In this document: piece by piece, positions 3,643-55,555 of the stretch
Layout of the letters: every line of letters begins with the position of its first letter
Position numbering within the stretch: position 1 is the stretch's first letter
Source: a virus
Taxonomy: Duplodnaviria > Heunggongvirae > Uroviricota > Caudoviricetes
Direction: 5' to 3' (one strand)
Virus record (IMG/VR): IMGVR_UViG_3300033146_005641
Location: 55,352 to 119,351 of that record
DNA: 64,000 bases
The notes under the pieces: model-generated
Told to the model about the DNA's origin: nothing
Seen by the model: the letters and a program-made list of their open reading frames with translations, nothing else
Database searches by the model: none
Program-made: the position numbers and the translations under genes

Positions 3643-4323
3643 CTAACTTATTAAGCCGCCTAGGCGATCGCCTAGTATATTTTCAGCGGCCTGTTTCTCT
3701 ACGCTATTACCGATTATTACATCTGAAAATGCAAAAGTAATAGATGTAGAAGATATCTCTGATGTACTATCATCTAATTGTATATCTTCTACATTTATGG
3801 GAAAAGCGCCTATAATGGTAGCTTCTAATATTATGTTTTCCGAATTTCCTAACTGCTGTATTTTTATATCTTTTTGATATTCGGGTGCAACACCCGATAA
3901 TAATAGTTGTGTATGATCTTTTACTATAGCTTTTACTTCTTTTACAGCATCTTTTAAAGAGTTGATTTCGCTTAATGCTAAACCAGATAAAGTATCTAGT
4001 CCTTTAAAATATCCGCCCTGATTTTTTAGTGCTAGAGAGTGCATATCTTCCATCCATTGTGTAAAATATCTTCTCGCTACCATCTCAGAATCATTATAAA
4101 ATACTACTGTCCAGGAGCCGGATAAAGAGGTCTCACCTATTATTTGAGTTTTTTTACCCTTAATAGTTACATCTACAGGAGTTATTACTCTACCGGGAAG
4201 TGCGGCAGCATGACACATAACGTCTAAGCTTCTAGAGATTTCAATCGTAGGAACTAATAATCTATACTTATTAGACCTAGCACCACTTTTAAGAGTATTG
4301 ATTAAGTTTTTTATTTTAGACAC
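3643..4323 (-). CDS. Tail tube (gp19)-like paralog 2
   Basis: GARSNKYRL, AAALPGR, GETSLSGSW.V.F, GAFPINV..IQLD...ITFAFSD match the gp19 fold. Confidence 0.8.
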   Translation of the reverse strand: MSKIKNLINTLKSGARSNKYRLLVPTIEISRSLDVMCHAAALPGRVITPVDVTIKGKKTQIIGETSLSGSWTVVFYNDSEMVARRYFTQWMEDMHSLALKNQGGYFKGLDTLSGLALSEINSLKDAVKEVKAIVKDHTQLLLSGVAPEYQKDIKIQQLGNSENIILEATIIGAFPINVEDIQLDDSTSEISSTSITFAFSDVIIGNSVEKQAAENILGDRLGGLIS

Positions 4324-5081
4324 TATACACCTTTATTTAATAAATTAGAAAAAGATTTTATCATTTCTTTTTTATCTTTTAATAATTCAGGAATATCTGG
4401 AAGACTATCTGAAAATATATCACCTAAAGAATTTTCAATACCTGAAGTAGCTGAACGTACTCTTTTATCTAATGCTGTTACGGCAGCCCTAACCAATCTT
4501 TGAACAGCACCTACACTCATATTTTCAAAAGACTCATCTTTAGTCATGATTAAAAAAGAGAATTCGACGTGTAGTTCTAAGAATCCTGATACACTACTTG
4601 TATCAAATTCTATATTAGATACTTTAGTAGGATATACACCCTCGAAAATATATTTAGCTACTTCGTTTTCATTCCAATCTTTTACTATTAAATTGATAGA
4701 TCCTAAAATATCTTGCTTAACTTGTCTGCTAAACATTAATTTAATGTCTTCGTTTGGTTTAATTGTATTTTTATCTAAACCTTTCTGCCAAGTAATTAGA
4801 TCTCTTAAAATTTCATGTTTTTCATCTATTATTAGAGTTACACTTAAAGATCTATTATAATCCACTCTAGTCATAATAGGAATAGTAGAACCTTTATAAT
4901 TTATTTCTACTTTTTTTGTATCAATTTCAGGAATTGATATATTTTTACATAATATATCGTACTGATGTGAAGTTTTTTGATTATTGAGATTTTTAGGAAA
5001 AGTTATTTCTACAGAAAAATTGGCAGGCCTTGATAAATTCCCACCAGCGTCAAATAATAAATTTCCTATAGAATTACTCAT
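4323..5081 (-). CDS. Tail tube (gp19/gp54)-like paralog 3
   Basis: RPANF.V.I, CKNISIPE, F.GVYPT.VSNIEFD...E..VEFSF tube-fold motifs. Confidence 0.75.
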   Translation of the reverse strand: MSNSIGNLLFDAGGNLSRPANFSVEITFPKNLNNQKTSHQYDILCKNISIPEIDTKKVEINYKGSTIPIMTRVDYNRSLSVTLIIDEKHEILRDLITWQKGLDKNTIKPNEDIKLMFSRQVKQDILGSINLIVKDWNENEVAKYIFEGVYPTKVSNIEFDTSSVSGFLELHVEFSFLIMTKDESFENMSVGAVQRLVRAAVTALDKRVRSATSGIENSLGDIFSDSLPDIPELLKDKKEMIKSFSNLLNKGV

Positions 5082-5106
5082 TTATTTTTTCCTTTTTATA
5101 TTTAAA

Positions 5107-5118
5107 TATTTATAAATA
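5107..5118. promoter_or_regulatory. Palindromic bidirectional late promoter TATTTATAAATA
   Basis: Overlapping TATAAATA on both strands between divergent tail operons. Confidence 0.7.
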
Positions 5119-5136
5119 TCCTAATAAAGGAACTAA

Positions 5137-5694
5137 ATGAAAGTAGAAGATATTGTTCAAAATATTTATAATACTAATTGGGTACTATCTGATGAATTTG
5201 AAATAGAAATAGATAATCCCGGCGAAATAAAACAAGAAGTATGGAATATGTGTGTTATATCTTTTTCTATGCCTGAATTGTCGTCGGCGGCAGGTAGTTC
5301 TGTTTTAGGAGGAATTAGAAAACTTACATCACGAATGTATGATACTTTCATAATTAATATAGCTTTTAGAGATATCGGCCATACCAAACTTAGAAAATAT
5401 TTTGAAAGAAAATTTGCTTTACAACAAAAAATGTATTATGATCAAATATCTACTAAAATAGGCTTATTTCATATTGATTCTTCTGAAGGAAGTAGAAGAA
5501 AGTTATTTTCAGCAGATGCGTTAATAACCAATATATCAGGATTAACTTTCAATAATGCAGAAAGTAATATTCAGGAGTTTACGGTGAGTTTTTCGGCTAG
5601 CTCTTTCAGTACTGATGAACTATTAAATTTCGGTACTTCTGAATTCGAATCAGAGGTAATTGATAACTTAATTGCTAACTTAAAAGATGATTAA
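5137..5694 (+). CDS. Tail tube-fold protein (gp54/gp19-like tube initiator)
   Basis: SFSMPEL, ITNISGLTF...IQEFTVSF resemble the tube fold; first gene of the baseplate operon. Confidence 0.55.
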   Translation: MKVEDIVQNIYNTNWVLSDEFEIEIDNPGEIKQEVWNMCVISFSMPELSSAAGSSVLGGIRKLTSRMYDTFIINIAFRDIGHTKLRKYFERKFALQQKMYYDQISTKIGLFHIDSSEGSRRKLFSADALITNISGLTFNNAESNIQEFTVSFSASSFSTDELLNFGTSEFESEVIDNLIANLKDD

Positions 5695-5732
5695 GATTAT
5701 TATTATATAATAAAATATTAGAGGAGAAAAAT

Positions 5733-6476
5733 ATGGCAGTAGTAATAAATACTCAGAGTAAACAAGATAACCTAAAATCACAGACGTCAACGAATAAAAC
5801 ATCGGACTCAATGAATAAGACTTTACAATTAGGTCCTAGAAAAAGCGTTACTATTCATCCGTGGAAAGCAAAAGCTAAAAAGGATTTTATTAAGGTTTTT
5901 AAGAAAAAAGGTAAAAATGTATCGGAAAGAGATGTTTTAGACGTTTTGGTGTATCCGTATATCGAAGAAAAAATATTTTTAAATTCTGCAGAAGTTCAAT
6001 ATATTTTAACTGAATTAAGAAAGATTTCGATAAAAGATCAGAATATTGAGTTTATTCTTACTTGTGATAAGTGTACAAAAGAGTTTGATGTAGAAACTAA
6101 TATAGATAATTTAGTACACTATAAAGAAACTCTAATACCTATAAAAGACGATAATATTGAATGGAAAGAAGTTTCGTCGCTAAAGGAATTAGAAAATAAT
6201 TTAAAGAAATTTTCTGAAGAACCTCCTAGTATAATTAACATGGCTATGAATATAAAAAACTATAATGGGAATGAAATAGATTCTATTGAAAAATTTATAG
6301 AGATTTATGATGATATGAGCATGGGTGAAGTCGATATTATCGAAACTAGATGGAAGGAAGTTTCTTCAAACTTTGAAATATATCAAGAATTAGAATGTCC
6401 TCATTGTAAATATAAGACGGCATATTTATTTGATATTATACCTTCGTTTTTTGATCCTCTTTTGCCTAAAGAGTAA
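5733..6476 (+). CDS. Baseplate hub subunit, gp26-like
   Basis: TIHPWK, CxxC pairs (CDKC, CPHC), position in the baseplate hub cluster. Confidence 0.7.
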   Translation: MAVVINTQSKQDNLKSQTSTNKTSDSMNKTLQLGPRKSVTIHPWKAKAKKDFIKVFKKKGKNVSERDVLDVLVYPYIEEKIFLNSAEVQYILTELRKISIKDQNIEFILTCDKCTKEFDVETNIDNLVHYKETLIPIKDDNIEWKEVSSLKELENNLKKFSEEPPSIINMAMNIKNYNGNEIDSIEKFIEIYDDMSMGEVDIIETRWKEVSSNFEIYQELECPHCKYKTAYLFDIIPSFFDPLLPKE

Positions 6477-6484
6477 TATTTATT

Positions 6485-7126
6485 ATGTGTTTCAGAGATA
6501 AATTAAAAAAAGTAAAAAGATATAATTCATTTCAAGAAAAAGAAGCACTATTATCTATATTAGACGAGGATAGCGTTGATATAATTAATACCTCGAAAAT
6601 TTTAGGTCTAACTCCGACTAATAAATTAGAAGCTGAAGCACTTATTATGAAGGCTAGAGAAATTTCTGTTTCAGAATCTATTGACTTAACTAGTTCTTGT
6701 CCTAATTGTGACTATATTAACATGACTAGTATTGATATACCTTCTATGTTTTTTAAGGGGGAGATTGATTCAAAAATACCCGAAGGTATTTATGAAGATT
6801 TATCAGAAGCAAATATTGAAGGCTTGGAAGATTTAGAACTAGATAAATATAATGAATTAGAAAATAAATTAGAAAGTAATAATAAAAATATTTTTGATAA
6901 TGTAGTTGAAATTAATTGTTTATCTTGTAAATATAAATATCAAACTAAAATAGAGCCACTAAAGTTTATTTCTAAATTCTCTATATCTAACCTGTATGAA
7001 CAATATTCTGATATTACTTACTATTCTCATATGAATAAGTCTGACGTAGATAATATGTATCCTTTTGAGAGAGAAATATTCATTGGATTAATACAGAAAA
7101 AAGAAGATGAAAAAGACTCTGTCTAA
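6485..7126 (+). CDS. Baseplate hub assembly protein (gp26-like N-part plus gp51-like C-terminus)
   Basis: CPNC/CLSC motifs; C-terminal DVDNMYPFEREIFIGLI resembles T4 gp51. Confidence 0.65.
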   Translation: MCFRDKLKKVKRYNSFQEKEALLSILDEDSVDIINTSKILGLTPTNKLEAEALIMKAREISVSESIDLTSSCPNCDYINMTSIDIPSMFFKGEIDSKIPEGIYEDLSEANIEGLEDLELDKYNELENKLESNNKNIFDNVVEINCLSCKYKYQTKIEPLKFISKFSISNLYEQYSDITYYSHMNKSDVDNMYPFEREIFIGLIQKKEDEKDSV

Positions 7127-7156: not shown

Positions 7157-9244
7157 GTGATTTTAGGTATTGTTAAAGCTATCGGAAAGGTGGCTATTAA
7201 AGGCTCTATAAAATCTTTTTCTGCAATAGGTAAATCTCTTTCATCAGTAGCTAAAATATCTAAAAAAGGTGTCTCGGCGGGTATCAAAAAAGGTATTAGG
7301 GCTAAAGTTAGAGCTAGAGCTAGGTCTAAAAAAGCATCTTCTTCGAATCGAGAAAATCAAAAAACATCTTCTAATAAAACAGAATATCAAGATGAGACTG
7401 GCGAAAACACCCCATTAGATAATAGTTCTAAAAAATATAATAAACAAATATCAATAAAAGACGAAACTCTAGATAAGTTAGGAAACTTACTAACTTTAGC
7501 AGATATTAATGGAGGTACTGGTGGTACTAAAGCAGATCAGAGACAAGAATCTATAGCTAGAGCTAAATTTAGAGATAAATCTATAGATATTTTAGAAGAA
7601 ATTAAAGATGAAATTAAAGACGGGATTAATGATGATACGGACGAGAATCAATGTGTTAGTAATGGAGCCTTAAAAGATGAAAGTAAAGATGCGGGAACTT
7701 TTATATCCGACTCAATTCCGAATATAGGTAAAAAAATAAATTCTAATAAAGGCGATATGTTTGCAATCCTACTCTTAGCTGTAAGAAGCATATGGAAAAC
7801 GATTCAGAATATTTTAGGATCTATTGCAGATGCTGGAGGATTTATTCCTTGGATTAGAGATAATATAGGAACGTTTTGGAATAATTTTCAAGAGCTAATC
7901 AATGAAGAGTATGGCGGATGGGTTCAATTTATATGGGCTCAAATAAAAGAAAGCGCAGAGATGATACTTTGGATAGCGGATAAAATAGGAGAGTTTTTAT
8001 TTGGTCCTACCTGGAAAGAATCGTTAGAATGGTGGAAGTTAAATTTTGGATTATTAACTGCTTGGTGGAATAATTACGGTCAACAGCTTTCTGACTGGTG
8101 GAAATATGTTCAGGATATCGGTATTACGAAATATATATTAGAGATTATTAAGAATTCAATAAACGATGTCGCTAAAATGATTTTAGGAGATAGTGTTATC
8201 TCTGAAATGATCGACTGGTGGAATGAAGTAAATGACTCTGGTGGATTTTTAGATTATTTATCTATCAAAATTCAAAGATGGTGGGAGGATTTTATTATAA
8301 ACTCCTCAATGTATGATTGGTTAAAAAAAGCGTTACTAGGCGGAAAGTCTATAAGAGATATTCAAATAGCTAGAGCTGAACAAGATAAGATAATTTTACA
8401 GCGAAAAGAATCAAGACTGGAAAAAGAGAAAAGAGAGAAAGAATCTAAACAAAAGGCTTTAGATGACTATAATAAGAGAAGAAAAAAGACAAAAAGTCAA
8501 TATAATAGAGAAAGATCAGGAATTTATAAACAATATTATAAAAATATGTATAACATAGGACATAAACATAAAAAATATATTAATACTAGTCAGAATCTTA
8601 TTACGCCTACTAAAGAAAAAAATAGATTCGCATACGTTGGTAGTAATTCTCAATCGTGGATGAAGGCTATAACATCACAATATGGAGTATCTGAATCTGT
8701 TCGAAATGGAGAAGGACATTCAGGTGTAGATTTTAGAGCTAAAAAAGGAGATCCTATTACCTCAATTACTGAAGGTGTAGTTGATAGTATTCAACCACAC
8801 GATAAGAGAGGGGGATTAGTCCTTTCTATAAAAGGAAAAGACGGAGTTAGAACTCTATATATGCATCTTAGCAAAGTTTTAGTCAAAGTTGGCGATAAAA
8901 TTTCTAGAGGACAAGTAATAGCTAAAGCAGGAAATTCACCTGGTAGGACTCCAGACGGAAGAGTTATGTCTTCTCATGTTCATGTTTCCGTTAAAAAGAA
9001 CGGAAAAACAATAGACCCTTTAACATACTTCAATAGTCTAAACTATGAAAATGGCGAAACTTTAGTGAAAAACGAGAAGAAAACTAAAAATGTATTTATT
9101 AAAGGTGCTAAAAAAGCAAATAGTGAAATCGCTACAGATAATACTAATGTAAGTACGGCAATTCATCAACTTAATAAGAAAATAGATGAAGTTAAGTCTA
9201 GCAAAGTAACTTCAACTATACACGAATCTATAAGAGAGGCATAA
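7157..9244 (+). CDS. Tape-measure/baseplate hub (gp29-like) protein with C-terminal M23 peptidase
   Basis: Trp-periodic helical middle; HSGVDF, YMHL, HVHV M23/LytM zinc motifs; position before gp48. Confidence 0.75.
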   Translation: MILGIVKAIGKVAIKGSIKSFSAIGKSLSSVAKISKKGVSAGIKKGIRAKVRARARSKKASSSNRENQKTSSNKTEYQDETGENTPLDNSSKKYNKQISIKDETLDKLGNLLTLADINGGTGGTKADQRQESIARAKFRDKSIDILEEIKDEIKDGINDDTDENQCVSNGALKDESKDAGTFISDSIPNIGKKINSNKGDMFAILLLAVRSIWKTIQNILGSIADAGGFIPWIRDNIGTFWNNFQELINEEYGGWVQFIWAQIKESAEMILWIADKIGEFLFGPTWKESLEWWKLNFGLLTAWWNNYGQQLSDWWKYVQDIGITKYILEIIKNSINDVAKMILGDSVISEMIDWWNEVNDSGGFLDYLSIKIQRWWEDFIINSSMYDWLKKALLGGKSIRDIQIARAEQDKIILQRKESRLEKEKREKESKQKALDDYNKRRKKTKSQYNRERSGIYKQYYKNMYNIGHKHKKYINTSQNLITPTKEKNRFAYVGSNSQSWMKAITSQYGVSESVRNGEGHSGVDFRAKKGDPITSITEGVVDSIQPHDKRGGLVLSIKGKDGVRTLYMHLSKVLVKVGDKISRGQVIAKAGNSPGRTPDGRVMSSHVHVSVKKNGKTIDPLTYFNSLNYENGETLVKNEKKTKNVFIKGAKKANSEIATDNTNVSTAIHQLNKKIDEVKSSKVTSTIHESIREA

Positions 9245-10191: not shown

Positions 10192-10716
10192 ATGATTAAT
10201 AAGGTTTATACGTACGATACTTTTGATAGGTATGATTATAACGTGAAAGATTATACTAGTAGATACTATGGTTATCTTAGCAAATATCTTCAGCAATATC
10301 CTGAATATTTTTTCTCGTATAGCGTCGAAGATGATGAAAAAATGGAAAATATTTCATATAAATTTTATAAAAGTGTGGATTATGCTGATCTAGTTTTAGC
10401 TATAAATGAAGATGTGTTTTTATGGAATGTTCCTTATAATCAAGATGTTAATAATAATCAGGCAGAACTATTAACTAAGATACTATTAAATTCGGCCGAT
10501 TTACTAGGTATTAATACTGTAGAGAAAGAAAAAATAGAAAAACTAGCTAAAGACGGTATTGAAGAGGGTAATAGTTTAAAAAGAAATATATTATTACCTC
10601 GTCCTGAATATCTTTCTACAGTTTTATCACTGATTGAAAAATATAGAGATAAATATAATTTAAATAAAAAATTAGCTGAAGATGAAGCAAGAAAACTATC
10701 TGATGAGGTTATATAA
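10192..10716 (+). CDS. gp53: Baseplate wedge subunit
   Basis: YSVEDDEKMENISYKFY (LysM-like), follows gp48. Confidence 0.75.
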   Translation: MINKVYTYDTFDRYDYNVKDYTSRYYGYLSKYLQQYPEYFFSYSVEDDEKMENISYKFYKSVDYADLVLAINEDVFLWNVPYNQDVNNNQAELLTKILLNSADLLGINTVEKEKIEKLAKDGIEEGNSLKRNILLPRPEYLSTVLSLIEKYRDKYNLNKKLAEDEARKLSDEVI

Positions 10717-22845: not shown

Positions 22846-22965
22846 ATATTATATAAAGAGAAAATGAATTCAAAATTAGAACAATTTTTAGGTTTTTATA
22901 ATTTTAGGATTTTAGAATAATCGAATATGTAGAAATATTACATAGAAAAAGTTTGGAGATAAAAA

Positions 22966-23490: not shown

Positions 23491-24438
23491 ATGACAAAAA
23501 CACCTATTTCTAAAAACGAAAAAGAAAAAATATTTGTAGAGAGATATAGACCTAGAACTATAAAAGATATAATCCTACCTAAGGAAATGAAAGAGTCTCT
23601 TTTAGAGTGGAAAAGAGAGGGTCAAATTCCTAATCTATTATTAATTTCTAAAGCACCGGGATTAGGTAAGACCTCTCTAGCTCACGTTATAGCTAACGAA
23701 TTAGATGCTGAGATTAAGTTTATTAATGCATCTCTAGAAAGTAATATTGATTTATTGAGAGAATCTATTAAAGGATTTGTAACTACCGCAGGATGGGATA
23801 ATAGACCTAAAATTGTAGTTCTTGATGAGGCTGACGGCTTGAATGAAAGAACTACTCAACCTGCTCTAAGAGCGTTTATTGAAGAGTTTTCTAAAAGCGC
23901 TAGGTTTATTTTAACAGCTAATAATCAAAATAAAATCATAGAACCCTTACAGGATAGATTAATGGATTATGACTTTGATAAGATGTTTAATGAAAATAAG
24001 ACTCTTATCAAGGATATTTATTTAAGATGTGAGTCTATTTTAGAGGAAGAAGATATTGAGTATAATAAAGAAGACCTAAAATATCTAGTAAAACACTATT
24101 TTCCATCGCAAAGAAGTATTGTAATGAAATTACAACAATTTACTACTAATGGTGTTTTAAAAATTAACCATTCTGAAATGAATATTGATGGTGTTTTAGC
24201 TGATATTAGAAAATTAGTCGTATCGAAAGACTTTGAAAAGATTAGAGAATTAATAACTGAAATTTCAGATCCTTCACTAATATTTTCGAATTTTTATGAA
24301 CACCTAGATGAGTTTGAAAAATCTAAAAGACCGGGTGTAGTTTTAACAATAGCTAAATATCAATCATATGATAGTTTAGTAAGAGATAGAGTTATCAATG
24401 TTATGGCATGTTTAACGGAGATGATGCAATTTTTATAA
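23491..24438 (+). CDS. gp44: Sliding-clamp loader large subunit (AAA+)
   Basis: FVERYRP.TIKD, PG.GKTS, INAS, VVLDEADG, QPALR.FIEEF, FILTAN. Confidence 0.95.
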   Translation: MTKTPISKNEKEKIFVERYRPRTIKDIILPKEMKESLLEWKREGQIPNLLLISKAPGLGKTSLAHVIANELDAEIKFINASLESNIDLLRESIKGFVTTAGWDNRPKIVVLDEADGLNERTTQPALRAFIEEFSKSARFILTANNQNKIIEPLQDRLMDYDFDKMFNENKTLIKDIYLRCESILEEEDIEYNKEDLKYLVKHYFPSQRSIVMKLQQFTTNGVLKINHSEMNIDGVLADIRKLVVSKDFEKIRELITEISDPSLIFSNFYEHLDEFEKSKRPGVVLTIAKYQSYDSLVRDRVINVMACLTEMMQFL

Positions 24439-24450
24439 AAGGAGAGATGA

Positions 24451-25365
24451 ATGAATTTACCGATAGGTATTGATGTAGGATATAGTTCTACAAAGGTTAG
24501 ATATAACGAAAAGAACGTGAGGTTTCCAACAGCCATTTGTTTTGCTACAGATGTAGGTACATCTTTCGGAGAAGAGGATGTTTATGAATTTGAAGGTGAT
24601 AAGTATTATGTAGGAAAGGATGCTGTAGGTCAAGAAACCTTTAGTACTACAGATTATAAATTCTTATATAAATTTGCACCTTTAATTATTTATCATATTC
24701 TCAAAAAATTTGACGAACATAATCTATCTAAACCTGTAGAAGTAGTAACAGGACTTGCTATTACTGATTGGGATAAAAGAGAGGAATTTAAAGAAAGAAT
24801 TTCTAATTTTGAGATTAATGATGAATCGGTAGAATTAAAGGTATCTCTAATTCCTCAAGGTGCGGGAGTGATTTTAGATTATGTGTATAATCAGAATGGT
24901 GGTAGTTTTCCTGAAAGAATTTCTGCTGTAGATATTGGTCATAATACTATTAATTTTTTAAGTTATAAAAATGGTAAGCCTATTAGAAATGAGATTAACG
25001 GATATCCTGGTCATGGTGTGACTAGTATTCTTAAACCATTTACAAAATTTTTAGAAAATAAGTTCTCTTTAAGTTTTTCAGAACAAGAGGCTATTGGAAT
25101 TTTCCAAAAAGGTACCTTTAGATATAATGGTGAGCTACAAGAAGATGTAAGTGAAAAAATTACAGAGATTAAATCTCAATTTATTAAAAAACTATTTAAT
25201 AGTGTTTTAGTTAATGATAAAAAGATTATGGGAATGAGTGATGTTGTTCTCCTGGCAGGCGGTGGTAGCCTTTTATTAGAAGATGTAAATTTCCCTTCGA
25301 ATGTATTTAAGGTAGAAGAACCGGTGTTTGCAAACGTTAGAGGATATATGGTAGGTAAAGAATAG
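24451..25365 (+). CDS. ParM/StbA-family actin-like ATPase
   Basis: Phosphate-1 GIDVGYSSTK, connect-1 PQG.G, phosphate-2 VDIGHNT, adenosine LAGGGS, FANVRG. Confidence 0.85.
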   Translation: MNLPIGIDVGYSSTKVRYNEKNVRFPTAICFATDVGTSFGEEDVYEFEGDKYYVGKDAVGQETFSTTDYKFLYKFAPLIIYHILKKFDEHNLSKPVEVVTGLAITDWDKREEFKERISNFEINDESVELKVSLIPQGAGVILDYVYNQNGGSFPERISAVDIGHNTINFLSYKNGKPIRNEINGYPGHGVTSILKPFTKFLENKFSLSFSEQEAIGIFQKGTFRYNGELQEDVSEKITEIKSQFIKKLFNSVLVNDKKIMGMSDVVLLAGGGSLLLEDVNFPSNVFKVEEPVFANVRGYMVGKE

Positions 25366-25477
25366 TTTATTAAAAAAATTCTCCTAATCCATATTTAAGA
25401 ATGTATTTAGAAGATGATGAGTCTTTATTTTCTATTATATATTCAGGATGGTATGAATTAACATAAAAGGAAGCAAA

Positions 25478-25759
25478 ATGGCAAAGAGTACAAACGTAGA
25501 ATTAGACGATATTAGTTTAAATATTTTAAAACAGGTTGACGGTGTTCATAGAAACTCTCTAATCAATTTAGGAATTATTGCAATTTCTAAAACAGAATAT
25601 TTTAAAAGTCTTACAGGTAATCCTTCAGAAGATATTTCTAAAATTGTAGACCTTAATGATGCAGTAAGTAATACAAATAATATAAAAGAAGAAACTACTC
25701 CGCAAAGTTCTAATAAAAGAAGTAAACCTTCAATTGATATCGGATTTGATGACTTTTAA
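25478..25759 (+). CDS. Small ribbon-helix-helix-like protein (ParR-like candidate)
   Basis: N-terminal strand STNVEL, helix DDISLNILKQV, turn, helix RNSLINLGI; low-complexity acidic tail; directly after the ParM-like gene. Confidence 0.5.
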   Translation: MAKSTNVELDDISLNILKQVDGVHRNSLINLGIIAISKTEYFKSLTGNPSEDISKIVDLNDAVSNTNNIKEETTPQSSNKRSKPSIDIGFDDF

Positions 25760-25839
25760 ACAATCGGCCACTCTTAAAGAGTTTGGTAAAGAGCTTCGAG
25801 ATGAGGCTTGCCGAAAATATTTTTAAGGAGGTAGGTGAG

Positions 25840-26235
25840 ATGCTTACAACACAAGACTTAATGAAAGATTTGGAATGGTTGCTTGACGTTCCTGCAGGTA
25901 AGGAGCCGAGAAGATATCCTTTAACTAATATTAGTTATGATGACAATAAGGTTTTTGTAGACGTAGCTGTAGCGGGTTTTGGACCTGATGATATTGATAT
26001 TGAATTAGAGGGAGATACTCTAATCATTACAGGCGAAAAATCTGAAGAAAAGTTTGATGAGGATCGTCAATTTGTTCAAAAACATATTAGTTCAGAATCT
26101 TTCGAAAGAAAAATCAAACTTCATCCCGACTTTGTAAGTGGAGATATTTCTGCTACTTATAAAAACGGAATTTTAGGAATTTCAATTACTAAAAAAGAAA
26201 AGCCTAAAAAACTTATTTCTATAGTATCTGAATAA
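25840..26235 (+). CDS. Small heat-shock protein (Hsp20/IbpA family)
   Basis: YP.TNI, VAVAGF..DDI.I, L.I.G, SFER.I.L, A.YKNGIL.I; ATG 25840 after SD aaggagg. Confidence 0.92.
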   Translation: MLTTQDLMKDLEWLLDVPAGKEPRRYPLTNISYDDNKVFVDVAVAGFGPDDIDIELEGDTLIITGEKSEEKFDEDRQFVQKHISSESFERKIKLHPDFVSGDISATYKNGILGISITKKEKPKKLISIVSE

Positions 26236-26280
26236 ATTTTAGAGTCCTCTTCGGAGGATTCGTAAATTTATTTGTTTTTA
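26235..26280 (+). terminator. Rho-independent terminator with UUCG tetraloop
   Basis: gtcctc-ttcg-gaggat with flanking aaattt pairing and a T-rich tail. Confidence 0.75.
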
Positions 26281-26331
26281 AGTTAGCTTATACTATAATA
26301 TATTATATAAAGAGAAAAGGATAGAAAGATG
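26277..26331 (+). promoter_or_regulatory. Early promoter/leader cassette (PeSL-like)
   Basis: TTTAAG-N11-TATAATATATTATATAAAGAGAAAAGGATAGAAAGATG, near-identical at several loci. Confidence 0.75.
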
Positions 26332-26982
26332 AAAGTTATAGAAGATATAAGTACTCTAAAAAAATGGGAAGATAGAATAGAAGAAAGTGATTCATATATT
26401 CCTATTAGAACAACGGATATTATTGAAAAGTTAGATTATGAAGTTTTAGTAATTTATTCTTTTTCAAAAACATATCACGGTGTAACACTTTATGATGATA
26501 ACGCTAATAAAATTCTAATAGAAAATAGCTATAAAAAAGAAAGAGCTTTTAGATTATCATTATATTCTAATGGTATGTTTATACCCTTAGGTCTTGAAAA
26601 AATCGTTCATAGAGGTGAGCGAGCTAAAACGTTTTCAGAAATTGATAAAGTAGCGTTGAGTGAAGCTATAATATCCCGAAAAAATACTATAGAAAAAATG
26701 AAAAAAGTTCCAATATCAGAATCGGTTGAAAAAGAAATTATGAATATTATATTCGGTAACAGAGAAATTGATTTAAAAGAAGACGAAAATAACCTCGTAA
26801 GAGATAATTTGGCCGATTTTATCGAGGATGTTTTATATATATACTTAACAGGTAGTTATCTTATCGTAAAAAAAGATAAAACTCGTAAAGGTAGAGTAAA
26901 GAAAAATATCAGATATCTTTTATCATTGTCTACTAAATTATATAAAACCGTTTATAAAAATTATCCATTTATCTTTATTTAA
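26329..26982 (+). CDS. Hypothetical early protein (C-terminal PFIFI tail)
   Basis: ORF begins at the cassette ATG. Confidence 0.7.
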   Translation: MKVIEDISTLKKWEDRIEESDSYIPIRTTDIIEKLDYEVLVIYSFSKTYHGVTLYDDNANKILIENSYKKERAFRLSLYSNGMFIPLGLEKIVHRGERAKTFSEIDKVALSEAIISRKNTIEKMKKVPISESVEKEIMNIIFGNREIDLKEDENNLVRDNLADFIEDVLYIYLTGSYLIVKKDKTRKGRVKKNIRYLLSLSTKLYKTVYKNYPFIFI

Positions 26983-46578: not shown

Positions 46579-46636
46579 TTTTAAGTTAAATTATACTATA
46601 ATATACTATATAAAGAGATAGAAGGATAGAAAGATG
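46579..46636 (+). promoter_or_regulatory. Early promoter/leader cassette
   Basis: TTTTAAG-N11-TATAATATACTATATAAAGAGATAGAAGGATAGAAAGATG. Confidence 0.7.
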
Positions 46637-55201: not shown

Positions 55202-55555
55202 TTAAAAAGACTAACAGAATTCAAATGTCTTCAAGAAGCAGCCAAATTATATACTGGCCGCCTAACATTACAGAAGGCAATAGATTTTCTAAAATTTGAA
55301 AATGACTGGGATATTGAAATTATAGAAGATGATTATAAAAACATAAATGTAGGATTTTGTGAAGAAAACGATATTAATGTTGAACATATGGTTTTTATGA
55401 AAAAACTTCAAGAATCTGGCGAAATTAATATGATTACAGAATCTATCCCTGTTATTATGAAAATATTATTATTAGATAAGAAAGAGGCAAGAAGAGTATT
55501 AAGTGATTATATAGCATATTATGATGAAGTTTATAATCCTCAAAAATGTATATAG
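55199..55555 (+). CDS. Hypothetical early protein
   Basis: Starts at the cassette ATG. Confidence 0.65.
   Translation: MLKRLTEFKCLQEAAKLYTGRLTLQKAIDFLKFENDWDIEIIEDDYKNINVGFCEENDINVEHMVFMKKLQESGEINMITESIPVIMKILLLDKKEARRVLSDYIAYYDEVYNPQKCI

Follow-up and report, generated by a model that had tools for sequence, protein, structure and literature searches.

A 64,000-nucleotide (nt) stretch of viral DNA (positions 55,352 to 119,351 of IMG/VR record IMGVR_UViG_3300033146_005641; hereafter the window) carries two consecutive genes at positions 24451 to 25759 whose predicted products resemble the two proteins of a type II plasmid partition system. The first gene encodes a ParM-like actin-like ATPase, here called Alp, and the second encodes a small protein with a predicted ribbon-helix-helix (RHH) domain, here called the adaptor. 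We propose that the two proteins make up a cytoskeletal module of the ParMR kind in a lytic T4-like phage, and that this module positions phage DNA during lytic growth. We assign this reading a probability of roughly 55%.

The association between the two genes is strict among the loci surveyed. Specifically, the adaptor gene is found downstream of Alp, on the same strand and within 2.1 kb, at all 23 loci of the Alp subfamily (43-99% identity), which comprise the window, 14 viral contigs, six metagenome contigs, and the phages YerA41 and Carin-5. At 11 of these loci the gap is no longer than 112 nt (the distance in the window) or the genes overlap. At the rest, one to three unrelated genes lie between the two. 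In YerA41 and Carin-5 the inserted gene encodes a dimeric dUTPase, at L005/L017 it is methyltransferase-like, and elsewhere small open reading frames (ORFs) intervene. That the pair is kept despite repeated insertions speaks for a functional tie and against a chance association. Alp is the only invariant neighbor of the adaptor at the surveyed loci, and the other genes near the module include those for the clamp loader and primase in the window, and for topoisomerase, exonuclease, and helicases in YerA41 and Carin-5.

When two divergent, weakly scoring adaptors are used as starting points, an actin-like gene is present immediately upstream of both. A third divergent adaptor is located on a 1.5-kb metagenome contig (L041) where, as in YerA41, a dUTPase gene directly precedes it. 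In YerA41 (L001) and Carin-5 (L002), which are both thymidine-hypermodified phages, the gene order across positions 5001-7021 is Alp, dimeric dUTPase, adaptor. The recurrence of the dUTPase-adaptor adjacency in L041 therefore indicates that the dUTPase insertion is conserved in that sub-clade.

An initial annotation of the window, made from its sequence, had recommended a phylogeny of the Alp families and a survey of T4-like phages. In a tree of 25 Alps, those with an adaptor partner form one group with 97/98 support, which is separate both from a group containing the Alps of CP220, Va1, and Rhizobium phages and from plasmid ParMs. The tree has a midpoint root only, and its one long branch (L030) is unplaced. 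Across these surveys, a single Alp clade is invariably accompanied by a single adaptor family.

The actin-like ATPase and its adaptor

The Alp ORF has the sequence AGGAG 6 nt before its ATG start codon. Judged against curated cut-offs, its product matches the Pfam family ALP_N (PF17989) with 60.9 bits (cut-off 26.3; 2e-16), such that residues 6-139 cover profile positions 1-148 of 148, and the family MreB-like_C (PF21522) with 37.5 bits (cut-off 27.8; 4e-9). The protein also matches PHROG 691, described as 'partition protein', at 2.6e-36. An AlphaFold2 (AF2) model of Alp reaches a predicted local distance difference test (pLDDT) score of 88.4 and a predicted template-modeling (pTM) score of 0.84. 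According to Foldseek, the nearest solved structures are Ta0583 and the ParM proteins of pCBH, pSK41, and R1, with template-modeling (TM) scores of 0.67-0.79 and E values of 1e-14 to 1e-18. Bacillus thuringiensis ParM and Alp12 are also near, and MreB, MamK, and actin rank lower. Likewise, a profile of 49 Alp homologs compared with PDB sequences matches Alp12 at 6e-9, plus two Clostridium ParMs.

The residues expected to contact the nucleotide are preserved. In an alignment of 49 sequences, the phosphate-1 motif (D8-x-G10 with K15), the segment P135-Q136-G137, the phosphate-2 motif (D161-x-G163-x-x-T166), and the adenosine motif (G270-G271-G272) are all invariant. On the strength of the profile matches and the model, Alp is assigned a ParM/Alp-type actin fold with intact nucleotide-binding motifs and is predicted to be an ATPase. 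Such a protein would be expected to polymerize into filaments in an ATP-dependent manner.

Proteins of this kind are numerous in metagenomes, where at least 211 match Alp at E<=1e-10. Among isolated phages, the nearest by Alp are the Yersinia phages YerA41 and GN1 and the Cobetia phage Carin-5 (47% identity). More distant genes, which are ~28% identical and are annotated as 'MreB-like ATPase' or 'ParM-like', are present in T4-type phages of Campylobacter (CP220, CP21), Vibrio, and Rhizobium.

The adaptor has six close homologs, and a profile search of 1.84 billion representative proteins yields 75 adaptor clusters with the threshold set at E<=1e-3, of which 46 also pass E<=1e-10. Judged by its conservation, the adaptor ORF is a real gene. 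All members of the family share a three-part build that consists of an N-terminal domain of ~46 residues, a linker, and a C-terminal tip. The predicted elements of the N-terminal domain are a strand (residues ~5-9), two helices (11-18 and 22-37), and a further short helix (40-46). Its consensus reads hydrophobic-x-L-D-x-x-S-x-x-I-L-K-x-V-D-x-I-H-R-x-S-L-I-N-x-G, continuing on to Y-Y-K-T-L-T-G, and the H-R-x-S motif opens helix 2. In an AF2 model of the adaptor, residues 1-40 (pLDDT 87-96) form an extended segment followed by helices, and the remainder is disordered. The linker varies in both length and sequence among family members, and the tip stays conserved. The commonest form of this tip is S-W-D-x-F, with G-F-D-D-F present in the clade to which the window belongs and F-x-S-W or I-D-W present elsewhere. 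The adaptor of the window ends in K-P-S-I-D-I-G-F-D-D-F.

A wide structural search with the N-terminal domain, which is independent of Foldseek and covers 48,161 chains, returns 26 leading matches that are nearly all what we take to be RHH proteins, based on the titles of the entries or on general knowledge of them. Included are Omega, Arc, NikR, PutA-RHH, AmrZ, ParD, TacA, CopA, and MazE9. Overall, the RHH matches have Z scores of 4.0-4.3 and root-mean-square deviations (rmsd) of 1.9-4.1 over 40-51 residues. ParR of pSK41 (2q2k; Z 4.2, rmsd 1.9 over 40 residues) and ParR of pB171 (2jd3; Z 4.0) are among them. The N-terminal domain of the adaptor is therefore predicted, from its model and these structural matches, to be of the RHH type. 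Other searches with the adaptor give less. Foldseek finds no significant match in the PDB, a feature search of the ESM Atlas gives only sub-threshold leads (RHH_1, CcdA, and Plasmid_stab_B, at 0.80-0.82), and a tblastn search of 50,697 phage records, for which the 93-residue query is too divergent, gives no match.

Type II ParR proteins reportedly combine an N-terminal RHH domain with a C-terminal interaction tail. For the adaptor, we propose that the aromatic C-terminal tip serves as the peptide that docks on Alp. The support for such docking is indirect, and consists of the retention of the tip behind a linker that varies and of the strict linkage of the two genes. A prediction of the Alp-adaptor complex, made with the Alp alignment, ATP, Mg, and adaptor residues 58-93, has a score of 0.29 (mark 0.32) and counts neither for nor against binding.

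The initial annotation had described a complete ParM-type ATPase followed by a small RHH-like protein, in the ParM-then-ParR gene order of type II systems. The profile matches and models bear out the first protein, the second is a conserved gene whose RHH domain is a prediction, and the gene order recurs at every surveyed locus of the Alp subfamily.

Genomic setting and repeats near the module

Features of the module and its immediate neighbors (positions in the window)
Feature	Positions	Strand	Evidence
gp44-type clamp-loader large subunit	23491-24438	+	Pfam AAA and Gp44_lid; phrog_168, 9.7e-80
Alp, ParM-like actin-like ATPase (predicted), 304 amino acids	24451-25365	+	Pfam, PHROG, AF2, Foldseek
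Alp-adaptor spacer, 112 nt, holding the adaptor ribosome-binding site	25366-25477		Spacer alignment; gene tables of L033-L036
Adaptor ORF, 93 amino acids	25478-25759	+	AAGGAA 6 nt before ATG
Adaptor residues 1-46, predicted RHH-type DNA-binding domain	25478-25615	+	AF2, structural matches, conservation
Adaptor residues 47-81, low-complexity polar/acidic linker, predicted disordered	25616-25720	+	pLDDT 52-65
Adaptor residues 82-93 and stop codon, basic stretch and aromatic C-terminal tip	25721-25759	+	Family conservation
Hsp20/alpha-crystallin gene	25783-26235	+	Pfam HSP20, 2.9e-18; phrog_432

The window is part of a 183-kb virus record that is ~81% complete. This record carries T4-type core genes for tail sheath, baseplate wedge, a gp55-like late sigma factor, primase, major head protein, prohead protease, and portal, and at its present completeness no tyrosine integrase or serine resolvase was found in it. 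The description 'lytic-looking T4-like phage', which agrees with the initial annotation, is therefore a fair label. No plasmid-type replication initiator is seen near the module. As had also been recognized, the module is located directly behind the clamp loader, with the start of Alp 12 nt past the stop of the gp44-type gene.

Several features of the surrounding genes are recorded here for completeness. No gp62-like small clamp-loader subunit was identified beside the gp44 homolog in the window. In the close relatives L033-L036, an ORF of 133-146 amino acids separates the clamp-loader gene from Alp, and no such ORF exists at the equivalent site in the window (24438-24451). This additional ORF has no PHROG match and no homolog across the 183-kb record. 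Directly 3′ of the adaptor is the Hsp20 gene, which places a small heat-shock protein beside a filament-type gene pair. The gene tables of L033-L036 indicate that this synteny is kept in the closest relatives only.

An alignment with relatives reveals that the spacer between Alp and the adaptor is the least conserved part of the locus. In the close relatives L033-L035 (2804-3001), the spacer contains a gene of 64-65 amino acids (Pfam Sequestin PF21825; phrog_774). The window has no such gene, and only its last 51 nt are present in L036. The initial annotation had noted an imperfect pair of repeats in the spacer of the window. We reject this pair as a centromere, as there are two copies only and the spacer is variable.

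Other repeats considered as candidate centromeres were also rejected. The TTTTAGG(A/T) repeats at 22886-22918 are few (three to four copies with 8-nt spacing), the 16-17-nt repeats at 26303-26352 extend across the start of a gene, and the 63-bp arrays of the genome lie in coding sequence. The TTTTAGG repeats are situated in a 158-nt non-coding region upstream of the block formed by a 161-residue ORF, the clamp-loader gene, Alp, and the adaptor. The 16-17-nt repeats belong to a more elaborate region (26231-26352) that begins with a 19-bp inverted repeat (26231-26272), continues with TATACTATAA, and ends with approximately three units of TTATAGAAAGATAAAAG. The copies of TTATAGAAAGATAAAAG run into the start of ORF 26329-26982, whose product has the C-terminal end Y-P-F-I-F-I, and TATACTATAA is present again at 46592, 54547, 55160, and 61279.

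Repeats are also present near Alp in two related contigs. In L020 (IMGVR_UViG_3300003873_000002), a 154-kb phage contig, a perfect 7 x 9-bp array is located between Alp and the adaptor. However, perfect tandem arrays are present in many intergenic spacers of this contig, each with a different unit (4-7 copies of 9-11 bp, at 2739-2781, 4162-4215, 4915-4961, 5903-5963, 8050-8098, and 10228-10316), an unusual trait of the genome as a whole, and thus the array beside Alp is no evidence for a centromere. In L028 (IMGVR_UViG_3300023313_000243), near-perfect direct repeats at 2527-2627 and 2817-2939 (26 bp x 3.9 and 30 bp x 4.1, respectively) flank a long (TAA)n microsatellite within a 490-nt non-coding region ~2 kb upstream of Alp. 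They may mark an origin or, alternatively, an iteron region resembling a centromere.

A proposed role in lytic growth and its alternatives

We infer the following mechanism for the pair. The 304-residue Alp would bind ATP and polymerize into filaments, and the 93-residue adaptor would dimerize via its N-terminal RHH domain and bind phage DNA. The flexible linker would present the aromatic tip, which may dock on Alp much as ParR uses its C-terminus to dock on ParM. Growth of the filaments could then either shift replicating genomes, or the replication and packaging zone, within the infected cell or keep them in place. The initial annotation had likewise suggested that an actin-based system might position or segregate phage DNA or replication factories. 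We favor a role in lytic growth because the module is found among replication genes in very different phages, because lysogeny genes (integrase or resolvase) were not found in the 183-kb record, and because AlpC and AlpA of the CGP3 prophage support phage DNA replication rather than classical segregation (PMC4446434).

A number of observations weigh against this proposal. It is not evident why a strictly lytic phage would require segregation. No parC-like iteron array is present within ~3 kb of the module, and no convincing non-coding iteron array was found elsewhere in the 183-kb record, as the initial annotation had indicated for the vicinity of the genes. The adaptor has no sequence match to an RHH family, either in Pfam and PHROG searches with 56 members or in a comparison of its profile with PDB sequences. 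Furthermore, the Z scores of ~4 are low in absolute terms because the domain has only 45 residues, and thus the RHH assignment is a fold prediction rather than proof. The strand positions predicted to face DNA are often acidic or neutral across the family (N6 and E8 in the window). Comparison of the adaptor by hhalign with the ORFs downstream of the nearest plasmid Alps is not significant (E 0.01 and 0.33). Finally, the distant phage Alps of CP220, Va1, and Rhizobium phages such as RHph_Y65 have no member of the adaptor family within 3 kb.

The missing recognizable centromere is the most informative of these points, and may indicate a variant mechanism. The binding site of the adaptor may be dispersed, non-repetitive, or located elsewhere in the genome, or perhaps no specific site is needed. 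A more general hypothesis, which we advance only tentatively, is that Alp and a new family of RHH adaptors with an aromatic docking tip constitute a widespread actin cytoskeleton of large lytic phages that operates without a classical cis centromere. In such a system the adaptor might, for instance, bind dispersed sites or phage-specific DNA, and so gather or position replicating genomes. The pair occurs in T4-like phages from vents and marine settings and in the thymidine-hypermodified phages YerA41 and Carin-5.

The main rival to a positioning role in lytic growth is true partition, wherein the genome would be kept as a plasmid-like episome through host divisions, in a carrier state or during unstable lysogeny. 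If so, then why would the module be found among lytic replication genes in very different phages? The T4-like structural and replication genes of the record likewise speak against an episome, as do the failure to find an integrase or resolvase (in a record whose ~81% completeness means that lysogeny genes could be missed) and the lack of a plasmid-type replication initiator or centromere near the module. We consider true partition unlikely for these reasons, even though type II ParMR systems serve plasmid partition by definition, the nearest non-phage homologs of Alp are carried by Campylobacterota plasmids, and ParM-like genes are common in plasmid prophages. There is also a phage precedent, in that a passage of PMC6669507 on the work of Yuan et al. 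(2015) links ParM-like proteins of the large Bacillus pumilus phages Bp8p-C and Bp8p-T with effects on unstable lysogeny.

Alternatively, the adaptor might be mainly an RHH transcription factor, acting as an autoregulator or timing switch, and Alp might scaffold cargo other than DNA (replication proteins or assembly sites). The two genes would then be co-regulated but their products would not be coupled to DNA. Most RHH proteins are repressors, and ParR of R1 also represses its own promoter. The failure to find a centromere array and the genes that often separate Alp from the adaptor fit this explanation as well. However, a repressor needs neither a long disordered linker nor a conserved aromatic tip, and the fact that the adaptors occur strictly with one Alp clade suggests that their cognate partner is a protein, such that we view pure co-regulation as rather improbable.

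There is very little to recommend a last explanation, that the tip docks on the sliding clamp or another replisome protein so that the adaptor tethers replisomes rather than Alp: acidic or aromatic C-terminal tips commonly recruit replication proteins (SSB; T4 gp43, gp33, and gp55), the adaptor gene is two genes past the clamp loader, and the S-I-D-I-G-F of the clade to which the window belongs loosely resembles the S-L-D-F-L-F type of T4 clamp-binding C-terminus, but most tips of the family (S-W-D-x-F or F-x-S-W) are unlike the clamp motif, the module is not beside clamp genes in most relatives, and Alp remains the one constant neighbor.

Comparison with known systems

Actin-like proteins with adaptors are already known from plasmids, from plasmid prophages, and from CGP3. 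Because the related phage genes carry annotations and have a PHROG family, Alp genes in lytic myoviruses must also be regarded as already annotated, and the literature that we searched contains no functional study of them. Relative to public annotation, three findings are new. The adaptors constitute a family that neither Pfam nor PHROG models (in YerA41 and Carin-5 its members are listed as 'hypothetical protein'), this family is strictly paired with a single Alp clade from large lytic phages, and its members end in a conserved aromatic tip. In-depth work on phage cytoskeletons has dealt only with tubulins (PhuZ and TubZ) and a single prophage actin (AlpC). Two culturable phages, YerA41 of Yersinia ruckeri and Carin-5 of Cobetia marina, carry the pair, and thus the role of an actin filament in the organization of lytic phage DNA is directly testable.

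The module resembles the type II ParM-ParR-parC systems of R1, pB171, pSK41, and pCBH. In both cases a gene for an actin-fold ATPase is followed on the same strand by a gene for a small adaptor, the nearest structures to the Alp model are those of ParM proteins, and the adaptor has a predicted N-terminal RHH domain and a free C-terminal region. Unlike the plasmid systems, the module of the window is found among replication genes of a lytic-looking T4-like phage and has no detectable parC repeat array. Nor does the record, which carries T4-like core genes and in which no integrase or resolvase was found at ~81% completeness, look like a low-copy replicon in need of segregation when its host divides. 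Moreover, Alp is <20% identical to solved ParMs, the adaptor has no ParR family match by sequence, and many relatives of the pair have genes inserted between the two.

The nearest plasmid Alps are the ParM/StbA proteins of pHRV44 (Nitrosophilus labii) and pCIG1485E (Campylobacter iguaniorum), with 33-35% identity. Each gene is overlapped by a downstream ORF of 93-98 amino acids, annotated as 'hypothetical', whose product starts with a strand and helices, continues with a linker of charged residues, and has an aromatic tip at its C-terminus. These genes differ from Alp of the window in being plasmid-borne and in forming a separate clade. Given that the profile comparison noted above is not significant, we describe the two as having the same architecture and do not claim homology. 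As far as we could find, the Campylobacterota plasmid pairs are uncharacterized.

Genes of PHROG 691 are also carried by CP220, CP21, Va1, phiKT1024, and Rhizobium T4-type phages, which are large lytic myoviruses. In contrast to the partnered Alps, the Alps of the CP220/Va1/Rhizobium-phage group are 23-30% identical to that of the window, belong to a separate clade, and are encoded without an adaptor within 3 kb.

A phage-borne actin-like protein that acts with an adaptor is known from the CGP3 prophage of Corynebacterium glutamicum (PMC4446434; PMC5539076). There, AlpC, AlpA, and alpS couple phage DNA to actin-like filaments, and the system is needed for efficient replication (PMC4446434). 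The pair in the window may have a similar role. Its layout differs, however, because alpA is upstream of alpC and the alpS repeats are in the promoter region (PMC4446434), whereas in the window Alp precedes the adaptor and no promoter-region repeats of the alpS kind are present at Alp. CGP3 is also a cryptic prophage of an actinobacterium.

A functional parallel may exist with PhuZ and TubZ of jumbo phages, cytoskeletal polymers that position phage DNA in lytic infection (PMC4244570), as we propose for Alp and its adaptor. These proteins differ from Alp in having a tubulin fold, no RHH adaptor accompanies PhuZ, and the phages concerned build a phage nucleus. Should the tentative hypothesis of a widespread actin cytoskeleton prove correct, phages without such a nucleus would have, in the Alp-adaptor module, an actin-based equivalent of the PhuZ tubulin spindle.

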